From: a virus | Virus genome (UHGV): UHGV-0021788 | Strand: one strand, 5' to 3' | Length of the DNA: 64,000 nt | Shown: positions 17,231 to 33,974 of the stretch, one piece after another | How the letters are laid out: each line of letters opens with the position of its first letter | Position numbering within the stretch: position 1 is the stretch's first letter | The notes under the pieces: generated by a model | Seen by the model: the letters and a program-made list of their open reading frames with translations, nothing else | What the model was told of the DNA's origin: nothing | Databases searched by the model: none | Translations under genes and position numbers: made by a program

Positions 17231-18256
17231 ATGGAAGAAAAAGAAAAAAGAGCAATAGATATAGAAGATATGTTTGAAGTCTGTACTATAAAAGATGAAC
17301 ATGGGGAAGATGGTTATAGTTTAGGAACATACAAGGACAGACAAGCCCTAAGTGGTTTTTATATAAAAGCTAAAAGAGATAGTTTATTAGAGAGAGTAGA
17401 GGGTTTCTTTTGTGGTAAATTTAAATTAGAAAATGACCCTGAAAATTATAGACAAGAAGCGAGGATAGAGCTTTGGTTATCAATAGATAAATATTATAAT
17501 AAACTTGGCTATGATGATAGTGTTAAAGGAGATGGATTAATATTTACCAATTGCAAATATAAGGCAATGGATATGGCTAAATTGGCTAAAGGAAATGTAT
17601 CTGTTTGTGACAGAACAACTGGTAAATATTATATAAATAAAATAGAATCATTTGAACAGAAGTTCATTGAAGAAAATGATAAGATGAGAAATCAAAAAGA
17701 TGAGAAATATTTAAGTGAAAAATATAATATTGAAGATTTTAATAAAGTATTTACTGGAGAATATGAAACAACAAATGAATTTATTCGATGGTTTGAAAAA
17801 AATAAAAGTTATATATTAACAAAAAAACAAATAGATTATTTAAATGGAGATGCAATAATAAAAAACGCAAGTGGTGTTTGGATAATAAATAAAAATATAA
17901 GAAAAAGAGTAGAAAGTTGTTATGCAAATGATAAATTAAAAAAAGAAAGAATTAAGAAATTAAATAAAAAATTAAAGAGTGTAAATTATTTATTAGAATT
18001 TAGTGATGAAGAAGATTTGATTAATAGACTTAAAAGAATGTCAAAGAGAAAAGATGATAGGATTTTAATGAAATTATTTGAATATCTAAGTAAAGATGAA
18101 TGTATTCTATTAACTAGAATATTAAATGATAAAGACTATGAAGTTGAAAATAAAAAATTTTATTATAACATAATAGAAATATTAATAAATGAAGAAGTAT
18201 ACATAAATAATTTAATTGAAAATATGAAGAAGGAAGGTGAAATCCCTTGGGATTAA
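17231..18256 (+). CDS. Hypothetical early protein (341 aa)
   Basis: ORF with AGGAG-like RBS context; no confident domain. Confidence 0.55.
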   Translation: MEEKEKRAIDIEDMFEVCTIKDEHGEDGYSLGTYKDRQALSGFYIKAKRDSLLERVEGFFCGKFKLENDPENYRQEARIELWLSIDKYYNKLGYDDSVKGDGLIFTNCKYKAMDMAKLAKGNVSVCDRTTGKYYINKIESFEQKFIEENDKMRNQKDEKYLSEKYNIEDFNKVFTGEYETTNEFIRWFEKNKSYILTKKQIDYLNGDAIIKNASGVWIINKNIRKRVESCYANDKLKKERIKKLNKKLKSVNYLLEFSDEEDLINRLKRMSKRKDDRILMKLFEYLSKDECILLTRILNDKDYEVENKKFYYNIIEILINEEVYINNLIENMKKEGEIPWD

Positions 18257-18831
18257 ATAGAAGAAGTATTATGAATACTAATGAAAATACAACTAAAAAT
18301 GCTAGTAAAATAAGTTTAAGTGATTCTCAAAAAGAGGCAATAAAAATAGCAATAGCTAATAAAAAAGAAAATAGAGAAATAGACATATGTACTTTAGAGG
18401 AAAATAAAGAGGATATAAAGGAAGTTACTACTGAAAAGGTAGAATTAGCTAATGACATGGTTAAAACTCCAATAGAGCCAATTAATGAGGTTACAGATAC
18501 AATTGAAGAAGATACTAATGTTGTAGAGGTAGTCGAGGAAAAAGTGGTTGAAGAAGTAGCCGAAGTTCAAGAAAATGAAAAAGAAGAAATAGAAGATTTA
18601 AATACAGAAAAAGATGATATAGCAAAAATAATAGAAGAAGAAAGTAATAAATCAGAAGAAGATAAAAAAGTTATATGTTTAGATACTGGAATAGTATATG
18701 AAAACAGTAAAGATGCAGAAAGTAAAACTGTCGCTAAAGCCAATGCAATCACTAGATGTTGTAGAGGAAATTGTAAGAAAGCTGGTAAATTGAGATGGCA
18801 ATATTACAGTGATTATTTACTTGAAAAATAA
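18247..18831 (+). CDS. Acidic hypothetical protein with C-terminal Cys cluster ('CLDTG...TRCCRGNCKKAGKLRWQYY')
   Basis: ORF overlaps previous stop; Glu-rich centre; possible zinc-ribbon at C-terminus. Confidence 0.5.
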   Translation: MGLNRRSIMNTNENTTKNASKISLSDSQKEAIKIAIANKKENREIDICTLEENKEDIKEVTTEKVELANDMVKTPIEPINEVTDTIEEDTNVVEVVEEKVVEEVAEVQENEKEEIEDLNTEKDDIAKIIEEESNKSEEDKKVICLDTGIVYENSKDAESKTVAKANAITRCCRGNCKKAGKLRWQYYSDYLLEK

Positions 18832-18841
18832 AATAAAAACA

Positions 18842-18881
18842 TTTGACTTTTAATGAAAATATTAGTATTATATAAGTAAAG
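18842..18881 (+). promoter_or_regulatory. Conserved promoter cassette (copy 2)
   Basis: 'tttgacttttaatgaaaatattagtattatataagtaaag': -35 TTGACT, 17-nt spacer, -10 TATTAT. Confidence 0.6.
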
Positions 18882-18990
18882 CTACGATAAATCAATAAAA
18901 AACATATATAGTTGTCTTACATAAAAAATGTAATATTTCAATTAATACACCATAAACGGTATATTAATTAATATGTAAGGAGAGATAACA

Positions 18991-19785
18991 ATGACTGAAA
19001 AAGAATTTGTAAGGGCATTGGTAGCAGAATGTAAAAGGAATGGATATAGAATATCGCAACCTAATGTTAAGAAAGTAATAAAATCTTTAAGAAATTTGAC
19101 ATTTAAAACTTGCTTAGAAGGAGAAGAAGTTAGATTGTTAGGGTTTTGCACATTTACACCTGAAGAAACAAGAGATGTAATCCTACCAAATGGAGAACAC
19201 AATAAAAAGAGAACTGTCATAAGAGTAAAATTAACAGAAGTATTTAAAAGAAGGTTTAGAGATACAGCAGTATTAGTAAGAGATGGAGCTATGGATATAT
19301 CAGATATTCATTATAATATGTTCTTTGAAGATGATGAAGAATATGATGATTTATTTGATGATTTAGATGAAGAAATAGAGGAAATAGAAGAACAGATAGC
19401 AGAACTAGAAGATGAAGATGATGAAAATGAAATTGACGACGACGACGAAGAAGATACAGATACAGATGAAGAAGATGATGATGAAGAATTAGATAGCGAA
19501 GAGGATAATGATGCTGATGACGACAATATAGACAATGAAGAAACTGCTGATGATGAGGAAGAAGACGACAACTTAAATACAGAAGAAATGGAAGAAAATG
19601 ACGATGATGAAGATACAGATGATGATACTGATTCTGATGATGAATTAGAAGAAGAAGAAGATGAAACTGATGATGAAGATGATGATGAAGATGATGATGA
19701 AGAAAATTCTGAAACAGAAGAACTAATAGAAAAATTAAATAGTTTGTATGAAGAATTTAAAAGTAATTTAAGAGGTGGAAAATAG
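18991..19785 (+). CDS. HU/IHF-fold DNA-binding domain (~90 aa) fused to a ~170-aa polyacidic (D/E-rich) tail
   Basis: N-terminus 'MTEKEFVRALVAECKRNGYRISQPNVKKVIKSLRNLTFKTCLEGEEVRLLGFCTFTPEETRDVILPNGEHNKKRTVIRVKL' aligns with the HU pattern (helix-helix, 'V.L.GFG.F', beta-arm). It is followed by 'EDDEEYDDLFDDLDEEIEEIEE...DDEDDDEDDDEE'. Confidence 0.7.
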   Translation: MTEKEFVRALVAECKRNGYRISQPNVKKVIKSLRNLTFKTCLEGEEVRLLGFCTFTPEETRDVILPNGEHNKKRTVIRVKLTEVFKRRFRDTAVLVRDGAMDISDIHYNMFFEDDEEYDDLFDDLDEEIEEIEEQIAELEDEDDENEIDDDDEEDTDTDEEDDDEELDSEEDNDADDDNIDNEETADDEEEDDNLNTEEMEENDDDEDTDDDTDSDDELEEEEDETDDEDDDEDDDEENSETEELIEKLNSLYEEFKSNLRGGK

Positions 19786-20177
19786 TGGAATTAAGGGCTA
19801 TAAACAATATTAGTGATGTAATCATAAGTACAGAAAATTGTAGTAAATATTTATTAAAAACAATTAACTCTATAAAATTAATTTATTACAATAATGAAAT
19901 CTATATTAAACTATCTATTGAAGTATTTTCAGAAAAAGAAATAGAATTATATAAAAAGTTCATACAAAAAACAATAGAAGAAGAAAAAAGTGAAGTATTT
20001 ATAGATTTTTGTATAAATGAAATAGATACAAATGGTGATAGGTGTAATAAATATAATCATTTAGGTTGTTCTTATGGTATGCCAAACAATATATGTTTAT
20101 TAGAATTAAATTACACTGAAATTACATCAATAGATTATTATTTTAAAATTAATGATATTAATGAATTAAATTTATAA
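19785..20177 (+). CDS. Hypothetical protein (130 aa)
   Basis: ORF translationally coupled to previous (ATAGTGG overlap). Confidence 0.5.
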   Translation: MELRAINNISDVIISTENCSKYLLKTINSIKLIYYNNEIYIKLSIEVFSEKEIELYKKFIQKTIEEEKSEVFIDFCINEIDTNGDRCNKYNHLGCSYGMPNNICLLELNYTEITSIDYYFKINDINELNL

Positions 20178-20714: not shown

Positions 20715-20912
20715 TTTTTTTAAAAAAAAGAGTTTACAAAAGTGGGTAAAAATGTTATATTATATATATAAGATAAAATTATGTTTGGTTATATTAATTA
20801 TTCCTTCTAATTAGTGATTATAAAAGTATAATTAATGTTTTCCAAACAACAATATGATTTTATAATAAATATTTCATATACATCACCCCCTTTTATATAT
20901 TATATCCACTCA

Positions 20913-20947
20913 GTTCGTTTGAGTGGATATTTTTTTAAAAAAAAGAA
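20913..20947 (+). terminator. Rho-independent terminator
   Basis: 'atccactcagttcgtttgagtggat' hairpin followed by a T7 run. Confidence 0.7.
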
Positions 20948-20989
20948 ATAGTAGATATCACATCATTTGTTGTATATATAATAATTTAT

Positions 20990-21019
20990 GGTAGAAAAGT
21001 AATTTTCTACCTTTTTTTA
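20990..21019 (+). terminator. Rho-independent terminator
   Basis: 'ggtagaaaagtaattttctacc' followed by a T7 run. Confidence 0.65.
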
Positions 21020-21068
21020 TTTACTTTTAATAAGAGTTTTAGTATAATATAAGTAAAGGATAATAGTA
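21020..21068 (+). promoter_or_regulatory. Conserved promoter + RBS cassette (copy 3)
   Basis: 'tttacttttaataagagttttagtataatataagtaaagga'. Confidence 0.65.
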
Positions 21069-21090
21069 GATATAAAAGGAGAGATTGTAT

Positions 21091-22589: not shown

Positions 22590-23083
22590 ATGGCAAAAGC
22601 AAAAAAAGAAATAAAGAAAATAATATGTACTACTTGTGGAAGAGAATTGCCTGAAAAAGATTTTGGTAAATCTTACTCATTTAGAGATAAACTAAATGGA
22701 AGATTGCCAATTTGCAAAGACTGTTGTGCTAGTTTATATGATAAGCTAATGGTAGATTATCAAGATGAAATGAAAGCATTATATAGATTTTGTATGATAT
22801 TAGATTTATATTTTTCTAAGGATACAGTTATGGGATTAATAAGTAAGAATAGAAATTCCGAAAGTAATCTTGGATATTTATATGTATTAAAATATAATTT
22901 AGTACAATATAAAAATAAAACATTCCAAGATACAACGGCATTTGTAAATATATTTGGTATGACTGAAGAAGAAATGGAAGAAGCATTATATTTGAATACT
23001 GAAAAAACAAAAGAAGAAATAGAAAGAAAAACTAAAAAAATAGTTACTCCAGAAGTAATCAAGCGTTGGGGTAATTGCCCCCT
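22590..23083 (+). CDS. Exon 1 of a three-exon gene immediately upstream of terL (possible small terminase subunit; Zn-ribbon N-terminus 'CTTCGRELPEKDF...PICKDCC')
   Basis: ORF runs into the group I intron 5' region; the in-frame stop at 23091 lies inside conserved intron sequence 'ccctatgtttataaaaaacatag'. Exon end approximate. Confidence 0.5.
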
Positions 23084-23439
23084 ATGTTTATAAAAAACAT
23101 AGCAAACCTTTTGAATTGCTGGAAACCCCTAAAGCTTAATACACTACAACGTGGCTAGAAATGGCGAACGTGAATGTTACGAAAGTAGAAAAAAGTTGTT
23201 AAGATGATATATGGTTAAATCCTAAGTATTGTTAATAATGGGCAATCAGCAACTAAGATTCTAAATGATAATTTATCATATGAATAAAGTCCAACGACTA
23301 GAGCATAGCTCGTACACTCAAGCGAGTGGAAGTGGAAGGTGTCCTATAAATATAGGATAATGATATAGTCTAATCTCATATGAAAATATGAGCAGTCGAA
23401 AGACGGTATGTATGTGGCGAATACATATGAATATAAATG
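23084..23439 (+). mobile_element. Group I intron A (family 1, no ORF, ~356 nt)
   Basis: P 'gaattgctggaaa' (23117), Q 'aatcagcaac' (23243), R 'ccaacgactagag' (23292), S 'aatgatatagtc' (23360). P2 hairpin 'ctatgttt...aaacatag'; P9-like hairpin and 3' 'gaatataaatg'. Confidence 0.8.
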
Positions 23440-23809
23440 TTCAGATTTAGAGTTAGACGATTATATTTTTCTTGAAGATAGATATAATCAGATGCTTTTA
23501 GCCTATGATGATAAGAACCCTTCATCATTGTGGTCATATCAAGAAATATGTATGAATTATTTACTCCTTAGAAAAGATAGAGGAAATGTTCAACTTCAAA
23601 AAAGTATCCAAGAAATTAATAGTAAATTACAAGCAGATTGTAAAATGAAGTTATCACAAATAGATAATGATGATGATGATAATGCTTGTTTTGGAAAGTT
23701 TATAGATAAAATAGAATTATATGAACCATGTAATAAAAAATTACCATTCTTTGAAGATATAGATGGAATAAGACAATACTTAAAACGATGGAAACAAAAA
23801 GCCACGACT
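23440..23809 (+). CDS. Exon 2 of the terminase-small-like gene
   Basis: Open frame continuing from 23408 ORF; ends at 'gccacgact' before the intron B conserved block; in-frame with exon 3 by U/G-rule junctions. Confidence 0.45.
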
Positions 23810-24203
23810 GTATAGAAATATGCAGTGGACACAGATTTAATTGCAGGTAATTCCTAAAGCCTTACACCAAAACGGAAGGTGAAAACCTAAACGGCAACGG
23901 TACGAAAGTAGAAAAAACGTAAGGATGAATATAAGGTTAAATCCTAAGTATTCAAACATATTTATATATGTTAAAATGGATGTTCATGCAAGGAAGTTCT
24001 TAAGTGATATATTATTATATCATATGGAAAACCTTCAACGACTAGAGTTTAAATACTCGTAGGGTATAAGTGATTGATACTCGAAAAGGTCTGCCCTTAA
24101 CAGGTAGTGCTGAAGGTGAAGAAATAGTCTAGTCACTCTAGGAAACTAGGTGCTTAGAATTAACTAAGGTTTATAGTGTAGCGACTATAAATAAATATTA
24201 ACG
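23810..24203 (+). mobile_element. Group I intron B (family 1 variant, no ORF, ~394 nt)
   Basis: P 'taattgcaggtaattcc', Q 'ggatgttcatgcaagg', R 'ccttcaacgactagag' (24033), S 'agaaatagtctag' (24127). Its 5' and P/Q regions are near-identical to the TMP intron K. Confidence 0.75.
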
Positions 24204-32760: not shown

Positions 32761-33974
32761 CTATGGGGGAAGATTGTATACTTAGTATGAATTTTTCCAA
32801 AGAAGATGGTGAATATAAAGAATATTTATCTTCTGTTGAAAAATTAAATAAATTATTAAAATGTCAAAGAGAGGAGGGATTAAGTGTGGATGTAAATAAA
32901 GAAACTTCTACTGTTGAAAACAAAGAAGAATTTGCTGAAGAAAATAAAGACGAAGAAGTTTGTCCTACTTGTGGAAAAAATCCTTGCGAATGCAAAAAAG
33001 AAAATCATGCAGTTAATGATGATGAAGAAGATAAAGCAGATGACAAAGTAGATGATGATGAAGAAGAAGATAAAGACAAGGATAAAGAAGATGAATCTTG
33101 TAAAAAGAAAAATCATGCAACTGAAGATAAAGCAGATGATGATAAAAAAGACGATAAAGAAGATGATAAATCTGACGATGACAAAGATGAAGAAGAAGAT
33201 GATGATAAATCAGATGAAGAAGACAAAGATAAAGAAGATGAATCTTGTAAAAAGAAAAATCATACAGTAGAAGATGACAAAGCAGACTTTGGACTTTCTT
33301 TAAATAATACATTTAAAGCCATAAGAAAGCAATTAGAATCTTACACTTACGAATATGTGAGCTATTGGGGTGACACTTATACTTGGAGAAAATATTATGT
33401 AGTAGAATTAATCCCTGAAGATTCAGTTGTTGTTATAGAAGATGAAGAAGAAAATGAATTCTATGGAATAACTTATTCTATAAATAATGATGATGTTGCT
33501 TTAGATTTGGATAATAAAGTATTATATATTCAAGAATGGAGAGCCAAAGAAACTAGTTCTGCTAGATTTGAAAATACTGATAAAAAAGAAAAATATACTA
33601 CTAAAGATGAAGTATATCAAGCAGTTGGAAAAGAATTAAAAGAACTTAGACAATTTAAAGCTGATATAGAAGCTCAAGAAGAAAAAGCTCAATTCGATGA
33701 AAAAGTTAATAATATTTTATCACAATTTGAATTCAGTGAAGAAGAAACTTCTGATTTAGTAGAAAAAGTTTATAACAAATCAATTAATTTAGATATGTTT
33801 GAAACTTGCTTATTTGCTTTAGAAGCTAAAAAGAATAGAGCTGAAAAAGAAAAATTTGCTAAAATAGAAAAAGAAAACAGTTTAAATATAGTTGATTCTA
33901 AAAAAGAAGAACAAGCAAAACCAAAATCAAGATTTGATTATCTATTAAAAGAATTTGGAAATAAAAATAAATAA
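32761..33974 (+). CDS. Head-morphogenesis gene exon 2: scaffold-like, highly charged protein with tandem acidic 'DESCKKKNH..EDKADD' repeats
   Basis: Open frame continues upstream of the annotated ATG (32763) to the intron 3' end; coiled-coil/charged composition typical of scaffolding proteins. Confidence 0.45.
33000..33290 (+). repeat. Tandem in-frame acidic repeats within the scaffold-like gene
   Basis: 'gaagatgaatcttgtaaaaagaaaaatcat' occurs twice (33090, 33235) with flanking D/E/K-rich units. Confidence 0.6.

Follow-up and report, generated by a model that had tools for sequence, protein, structure and literature searches.

Proteins of the HU/IHF (DNABII) type are encoded by some viruses, as exemplified by TF1 of phage SPO1 and pA104R of African swine fever virus (ASFV); to our knowledge neither of the two carries a polyacidic extension, TF1 having only a short C-terminal extension. 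YonN of phage SPbeta is a homologue of HBsu that binds and untwists DNA (PMC3258159). Acidic tails, on the other side, have been described for architectural DNA-binding proteins of other folds. In phi29 p6 a D/E-rich C-terminal tail, which follows a short helix and varies in length among related phages, contacts a basic patch and negatively regulates DNA binding (PMC10899789), and in HMGB1 an uninterrupted D/E tail autoinhibits DNA binding and alters the target search (PMC10250230). Phage-encoded HU and acidic autoinhibitory tails are thus each already known, while for an HU/DNABII domain with a polyacidic tail we found no description in the literature searched. Here we analyse a gene that joins the two, located at positions 18991 to 19785 of a 64,000-nucleotide (nt) stretch of DNA (hereafter the window) from the virus genome UHGV-0021788, a human-gut phage of about 200 kb with a GC content of 26% in the window region. 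We refer to the gene and its product as the HU-acid gene and protein.

We propose that the product is a phage nucleoid-associated protein of the HU/IHF type with a cis-acting acidic shield, a reading for which we see about as much reason for acceptance as for reserve. The proposal is supported by the charge compensation found across the family, from the short acidic tail being the norm there and from the precedents of phi29 p6 and HMGB1. The most likely role of the tail is to tune or to shield the binding of DNA, and a DNA mimicry directed against restriction is less probable.

The HU-type body and its acidic tail

The open reading frame (ORF) runs from ATG to TAG behind the Shine-Dalgarno sequence AAGGAGAG, and both the HU-like N-terminus and the polyacidic C-terminus are present as had been claimed in the original prediction, which was made from the letters of the window. 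Its parts are as follows.

18991..19785, + strand: complete coding sequence, HU-type body and polyacidic tail, 264 amino acids (aa) plus stop
18991..19281, + strand: HU/IHF (DNABII) domain, residues 1-97
19282..19326, + strand: linker, residues 98-112, DGAMDISDIHYNMFF, delimited from alignments
19327..19710, + strand: polyacidic tract, residues 113-240, delimited from composition and codon usage
19711..19782, + strand: C-terminal segment, residues 241-264, ETEELIEKLNSLYEEFKSNLRGGK, non-acidic, amphipathic, non-repetitive and conserved

The assignment of residues 1-97 to the HU/IHF fold draws on several comparisons. The match to PF00216 (Bac_DNA_binding) is marginal, with 22.7 bits for the full protein and 24.6 bits for residues 1-119 at a gathering score of 22.4, and it spans profile positions 1-56 only. 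An exhaustive profile search over 1.84 billion representative proteins gave a small divergent family of proteins of 85-112 aa with an invariant 'LPNG' motif, in which PF00216 is recognised in 17 of the 18 members (E down to 2.4e-10). With the profile of these 18 sequences, TF1, HU, Hbb and IHF rank first among the PDB sequences; a profile of four sequences gave no HU match there, and the larger profile was required. The alignment to HBsu by hhalign has an E of 5e-6 and ends before the arm. The AlphaFold model (pLDDT 88.8) has the canonical a1-a2-b1-b2-arm-b3-a3 topology, that is, two N-terminal helices, a three-stranded sheet with a beta-ribbon arm and a C-terminal helix, with a1 at residues 3-16, a2 at 23-42, b1 at 47-49, b2 at 53-59, the arm at 60-74, b3 at 75-81 and a3 at 83-97; the best 50 Foldseek matches of the model in the PDB are all proteins of the HU/IHF/Hbb type. 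The HU fold of residues 1-97 is thus established, as had been expected for the first 90 or so residues, and the structure prediction, which could have gone against that expectation, recovered it.

The body departs from canonical HU in several respects. In HU, P63 near the arm tip intercalates and kinks the DNA, and R55, R58 and R61 touch the minor groove. Every one of the 18 family members has P66 and G68 of the 'LPNG' motif, which in the model lie mid-arm, where P66 appears as the counterpart of HU P63, the equivalence to HU 'NPxTG' being one of position in the model and not of a residue-level structural alignment. The canonical arm arginines were not found: the ascending strand, TPEETRDVIL, is net negative and has R61 alone, and the basic arm residues lie on the descending strand, NKKRTVIRVK. 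Moreover, five residues are inserted between a1 and a2, and the arm is shorter. The phenylalanine F52, which would belong to the dimer core, is invariant, and GF-x-x-F is kept in the close lineages. By sequence the protein belongs to a divergent and apparently undescribed 'LPNG' subfamily of DNABII: PHROGs gave no match for it, and none of the sources consulted names any member of the family. In 50,697 phage records, tblastn with the protein as query gave no match.

The body is followed by a non-acidic linker ending in the aromatic motif Y-x-M/I-F-F (YNMFF in the window), which is kept in four close lineages. The tract of 128 aa behind it has 92 acidic residues (72% D/E) and no K or R, the stretch free of K and R being as long as 150 residues (98-247); residues 1-112 have a net charge of +7 and residues 113-263 one of -95. 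Its codons are almost all GAA (45), GAT (40) and GAC (10), and TRF finds periodicities of 3, 6, 9 and 12 nt. Within the tract, residues ~118-140 (19342-19410) form, by their hydrophobic moment, an amphipathic helix-like segment, and a conserved island, TEEMEENDDDEDTDDDTDSDDEL, is also present. The C-terminal segment has a high helical hydrophobic moment, being helix-like over residues 244-261. We take the acidic tail to be disordered, as its composition suggests. The polyacidic C-terminus foreseen in the original prediction is real, but not as some 170 residues of nearly pure D/E: the D/E tract is limited to residues 113-240, and the linker and the C-terminal segment are non-acidic.

Tail length among relatives and alleles

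In more distant orthologues, which keep the gene order, the protein ends after ~18 acidic residues, and the stop codons, which lie within the contigs, are genuine.

P0002 and its cluster: short tail, 125-129 aa, hundreds of contigs, one of them of 205 kb
P0004: short tail, 128 aa
P0007: short tail, 133 aa

The short acidic tail is the norm in the family and the long tail is a lineage-specific exception. The combination of an HU body with an acidic tail, which had been called unusual, is so in the length of the tail only, since a short acidic tail is common in the family and acidic autoinhibitory tails have already been described on phage and architectural proteins. Across the wider family the charge of the tail tracks that of the body. 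The bodies of tail-less members are mostly near-neutral (0 to +5), tails of -1 to -17 go with bodies of +7 to +17, and the short-tail relatives combine bodies of +12 to +17 with tails of -12 to -17; for the long forms the values are +10 for the body and -97 to -104 for the tail (+10 and -97 in the window). The arrangement, as read from the sequences, is that of a basic DNA-binding domain followed by a C-terminal D/E tail that would offset its charge. In addition, an aromatic-acidic motif, Y-x-M/I-F-F-E-D-D-E-x-Y-D, is kept in the short-tail and the long-tail lineages.

The identical 264-aa protein occurs on five public contigs (NCBI, ENA, Logan) of up to 206 kb. Other intact long-tail alleles, of 269 aa (P0008, locus L007) and of 272 aa (P0025, loci L009-L011, human gut), come from independent samples with the same gene order, and compared with the window they have many substitutions, while all of their indels comprise whole codons. 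Between the long-tail alleles the HU body has 0-1 nonsynonymous as against 3-10 synonymous differences, and the acidic tract has 18-39 nonsynonymous (a third to a half of them D/E swaps) and 11-20 synonymous differences with 16-20 gap columns. Parts of the tail are kept nonetheless, namely the proximal segment 113-145, the island and the last 24 residues, whose codons show 0-4 nonsynonymous changes across all long-tail alleles. By local tblastn the C-terminal helix is found, among the loci compared, in long-tail genes only; a database search for a gene fusion that could have supplied it gave no match, a search which, owing to composition bias, missed the own protein too.

The tail probably expanded by slippage at GAA/GAT codon repeats, and the ~130 extra residues that resulted seem to be tolerated and may even be exploited. 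That two amphipathic segments (~118-140 and 244-261) are conserved argues against pure junk. Within the long-tail lineage, natural lesions have separated the tail from the body at least twice. At locus L003 (P0001) codon 131 (19381-19383) is changed from GAA to TAA (L003 4900-4902), leaving a protein of 130 aa, which is the ancestral length. At L012 (~866) and L013 (~476), from two samples, one nucleotide is deleted, the C at 19323 (codon 111, TTC), uncoupling the tail from the body, and four protein variants (P0026-29) share this frameshift. The TAA allele is present in ERZ27313768, and the deleted-C allele in ERR10608679 and ERR4086636. Since the tract downstream of both lesions is still open, the lesions must be recent. 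Programmed frameshifting was considered for the site at L012 and L013 and rejected: it reads ATG TTT TTG AAG, with a T5 run only and no X XXY YYZ slippery heptamer, and the deletion is therefore treated as a plain mutation. The truncations imply that the extra tail length is accessory, not essential. A long tail that is confined to one lineage, evolves fast and is cut off in some natural genomes looks more like an accessory or tuning element than like a core function in take-over.

It is noted that blastn matches link the GAA/GAT tract at 19408-19703 with 'hypothetical protein' genes of Xanthomonas and Erwinia jumbo phages, the comparison being with PV764603.1 17258-17546. Homology to these genes was rejected because the matches are confined to the GAA/GAT repeat (query 2409-2704) and were judged compositional; they suggest that D/E-repeat proteins recur in large phages. 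Note also that the window has a second charged tract, at 33105-33260 in an ORF of the structural block (32763-33974, 403 aa), with mixed K/D/E (KADDDKKDDKEDDKSDDDKDEEEDDDKSDEEDKDKEDE), unlike the HU tail, which is free of K and R.

Gene neighbourhood, promoter and leader

After a lysis cassette on the - strand the order of genes is an ORF of 107 aa, one of 341 aa, one of 194 aa, the HU-acid gene and an ORF of 130 aa, followed by a YonK-like gene, an ORF of 89 aa, a Metallophos exonuclease, a YonG_N-like gene split by an intron and fragments of terminase (TerL); in one relative the YonG-like gene is annotated as a putative small terminase subunit. The nearest cultured relatives, by the exonuclease, are phiCD211-like C. 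difficile phages (33% identity) and SPbeta-like Bacillus phages (29%), and both have an HU gene at the matching relative position: a 'histone-like' coding sequence in phiCD211 and a YonN-type HU between YonO and YonK in SPbetaL1. By its place in the gene order the HU-acid protein corresponds to YonN of SPbeta and to the phiCD211 'histone-like' protein. Sequence homology to the latter was tried and rejected as insignificant (BLASTP E 0.011, hhalign probability 3%), and the link is accordingly positional only. A scan of GTDB genomes found no relative, so that no host or prophage was assigned. The features around the gene are as follows.

18843..18879, + strand: sigma-A-like promoter copy, TTGACT-17-TATTAT, extended motif ...ATATAAGTAA, 10/12 in a consensus scan
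18880..18990, + strand: 5' leader of ~110 nt, with TCTTACAT at 18915-18922, ATGTAA at 18928-18933 and ATGTAAGGAGAG, which includes the Shine-Dalgarno sequence, at 18973-18984
19785..20177, + strand: downstream ORF of 130 aa, whose GTG start overlaps the TAG stop of the HU gene (TAGTG)
9969, 16744, 16798, 18843, 21020, 24996, 26687, 31364, 40772 and 56826, + strand: copies of the promoter-like motif

The conserved promoter that had been placed ahead of the gene is real. The motif, TT[TG]ACTTTTAAT-N11-TAT[AT]ATATAAGTAA, was found by a regular-expression scan in ~10 copies on the + strand of the window; the other copies usually abut a ribosome-binding site, and the position of the HU-acid copy, ~110 nt upstream of the ATG, is unique to this gene. 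The label 'early protein' that had been attached to the gene is not supported. The same promoter also precedes ORFs inside the structural block, so that it gives no timing information and defines no early region, and the gene itself, at the place that yonN has in SPbeta, stands behind the lysis cassette and ahead of the exonuclease/YonG/terminase block. The ORFs behind the copies at the structural genes (25045, 26723, 31367/31417, 40823 and 56878), lying between or inside those genes, may be insertions of the homing-endonuclease type.

In the leader an exact palindrome, CTTACAT-N5-ATGTAA, has its single occurrence in the window. RNAalifold over five lineages pairs CTTACAT with the ATGTAAG near the Shine-Dalgarno sequence by 8 essentially invariant pairs, and an inner hairpin has 5 pairs with compensatory changes. 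TCTTACAT can pair alternatively with the adjacent ATGTAA or with ATGTAAGGAGAG, and from these pairings we infer a role in translational control: the leader could be a translational switch or an operator. At the other end of the gene, the overlapping start and stop suggest that the 130-aa ORF is probably translationally coupled to the HU-acid gene. This ORF is syntenic in L001, L003, L004, L007 and L009 and absent in L005, and its sole family match, to phrog_36410, is weak.

Several other features of the neighbourhood were recorded. The central region of the upstream 194-aa ORF (18247-18831) is acidic as well; the ORF overlaps the 341-aa ORF at the latter's end, and its C-terminus matches phrog_4538, in the C-terminal end of that family only. 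In the interval from the 89-aa ORF to the exonuclease, other loci have a gene of ~700 aa (L001 10600-12702, L005 4772-6874, L007 11531-13636, L009 12282-14387), for the copies of which in L007 and L009-L011 Pfam TerD is recorded; at its place (20715-21084) the window has only ~370 nt, with two terminator-like hairpins and a promoter copy. The YonG_N/phrog_3314-like gene is split into ORFs 22590-23093 and 23408-23815 by a group I intron at 23063-23392 (Rfam RF00028, 85 bits, E 3e-20), and similar sequences ('...gatatagtct...cagtcgaaagacggtatg') upstream of 41702, 58196 and 32763 point to additional introns that stay below the threshold of Rfam. In the phage with the 272-aa allele, IS605/TnpB-like fragments (HTH_OrfB_IS605, Cas12f1-like_TNB) lie at L009/L010 6686-7747, between the lysis cassette and the 107-aa ORF, and the window is without them.

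Possible roles of the tail and comparison with known systems

Based on our proposal, the body would dimerise, and its two beta-arms would bind and bend the DNA via the invariant proline at the 'LPNG' tip. The acidic tail would act in cis as an electrostatic shield or an intramolecular competitor of DNA, folding back onto the basic saddle and the arms and lowering the non-specific affinity for DNA, by which it would tune the site and the residence time of the protein on DNA. The ancestral tail would have had ~18 residues, roughly cancelling the charge of the body, and in this lineage would have been inflated to ~150 residues, gaining the two amphipathic helix-like segments; through these the tails of a dimer may pair, or the tail may dock on a partner.

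Four points weigh against this proposal. The tail (-97) exceeds the body (+10) about ten-fold, beyond what shielding would need, and the full-length protein might thus be unable to bind DNA. The C-terminal helix, being conserved, hints at pairing or at a specific partner, which simple shielding does not explain. The ascending arm strand, being without the canonical HU arginines, implies that DNA binding may be altered. Finally, the stop codon and the deletion described above are two independent natural lesions that take away the long tail.

Of the alternatives the likeliest, though we consider it unlikely, is the following: only the proximal ~18 acidic residues matter, and the other ~130 are a runaway, near-neutral low-complexity expansion, that is, tolerated slippage without function. 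As to the extra length, it overlaps our proposal. It would account for the GAA/GAT repeats with their periodicity of 3-12 nt, for the length polymorphism of 264, 269 and 272 aa, for the high rate of nonsynonymous changes and indels in the tract, for the natural nonsense and frameshift alleles, one of which yields a protein of the ancestral 130 aa, and for the absence of the expansion from the abundant short-tail lineages. It is harder to reconcile with ~150 codons staying open in three diverged alleles of a genome of 26% GC, with the conserved islands, and with a conserved non-repeat C-terminal helix, which requires that the whole tract be read in frame.

The tail could instead have a DNA-mimic role of the kind suggested in the original prediction. 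It would act in trans, as a polyanionic mimic or decoy that titrates DNA-binding proteins of the host (for instance restriction enzymes, HU or other basic nucleoid proteins), with the HU body serving as an anchor or heterodimerising with host HU. The 128 residues at 72% D/E, the run of 150 residues without K or R and a tail charge far above what neutralisation of the body needs would suit such a role. Fast evolution, lineage-specificity and repeated loss are typical of accessory functions in an arms race, and phage proteins that target HU exist, as PMC8892312 indicates for SPO1 Gp46. However, the tail has no match in Pfam to Ocr, ArdA or any other family: with the full protein and an E of up to 1, the scan gave neither of the two, and the matches of the tail are spurious, weak and far below the curated cut-offs. 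The known anti-restriction mimics are folded and DNA-shaped, whereas the HU-acid tract is of low complexity and presumed disordered. Moreover, the gene has no demonstrable early or leading position, and most relatives manage with a tail of 18 residues. We therefore regard a decoy as rather improbable.

A third alternative, by analogy with SSB, T7 gp2.5 and T4 gp32, is that the tail recruits a partner, the aromatic-acidic motif and the C-terminal helix docking a phage replication, recombination or packaging protein onto HU-bent DNA. This is consistent with the presence of that motif in both short-tail and long-tail lineages, with the purifying selection on the helix, with neighbours that include the exonuclease, the YonG-like gene and TerL fragments, and with the probable coupling to the 130-aa ORF. 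It is a doubtful reading all the same: the C-terminal helix is missing in the short-tail majority, and tails of the SSB type end in a hydrophobic tip right after a short acidic run.

More speculatively, the long-tail protein may be a dominant-negative 'HU poison', or the counterpart in a prokaryotic virus of a histone chaperone. The HU body would target DNA or heterodimers with host HU, and the polyanion of ~130 residues with its two amphipathic helices would strip or sequester basic host nucleoid proteins or DNA-targeting defence enzymes, clearing the DNA for the phage. To this idea we give a low probability. Finally, that the acidic tract is not translated with the HU body, by mis-assembly or as the frameshifted low-complexity artefact against which the original prediction had guarded, can practically be set aside, for although the tract is interrupted in some database entries (by the TAA in P0001, by the deletion in P0026-29), the identical protein is found on the five contigs, two further intact alleles come from other samples, and the HU-acid frame is the sole open one that spans the tract, the remaining frames being closed or nonsensical.

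The tuning of DNA binding by D/E tails has so far been studied mainly with eukaryotic HMGB1 and artificial constructs. The present family forms a natural series of tail lengths on one body, with none, ~5, ~18 and ~150 acidic residues plus the truncation alleles, and is close to a ready-made experiment on such tuning. Should the long tail act in trans, it would represent a disordered DNA mimic of a new type, from an abundant uncultured group of ~200-kb human-gut phages, and if the 'HU poison' is true, an HU-anchored disordered DNA mimic would be a mechanism undescribed for any DNABII protein.

Among the known systems, Ocr and ArdA are alike in being strongly acidic phage or plasmid proteins, but they are folded, imitate the DNA backbone with carboxylates on their surface and lack a DNA-binding domain, whereas the tail of the HU-acid protein is of low complexity, presumably disordered, and attached to such a domain. 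TF1 and pA104R share with it the DNABII type at a sequence identity of only ~10-20%. YonN and the phiCD211 protein share the HU/DNABII fold and a place ahead of the genes for YonK, the Metallophos exonuclease, YonG and TerL, in siphovirus-type Firmicute genomes that are likewise large; YonN is, however, a canonical HU of 92 aa, 68.5% identical to HBsu and without a tail, whereas the window protein is of the divergent 'LPNG' subfamily and has the acidic tail. HMGB1 and HMG-D likewise place an acidic tail, of ~30 residues in HMGB1, after a DNA-bending architectural domain, but they are eukaryotic, of the HMG-box fold and without evolutionary relationship to the protein described here. The closest functional analogue is phi29 p6, an architectural protein that organises the phage genome and likewise ends in a disordered acidic tail, though of an unrelated fold and with ~24 residues, 10 of them acidic, in its tail, as against ~128 and 92 in the window protein. 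By analogy, the mechanism that we propose would most resemble those of phi29 p6 and HMGB1.
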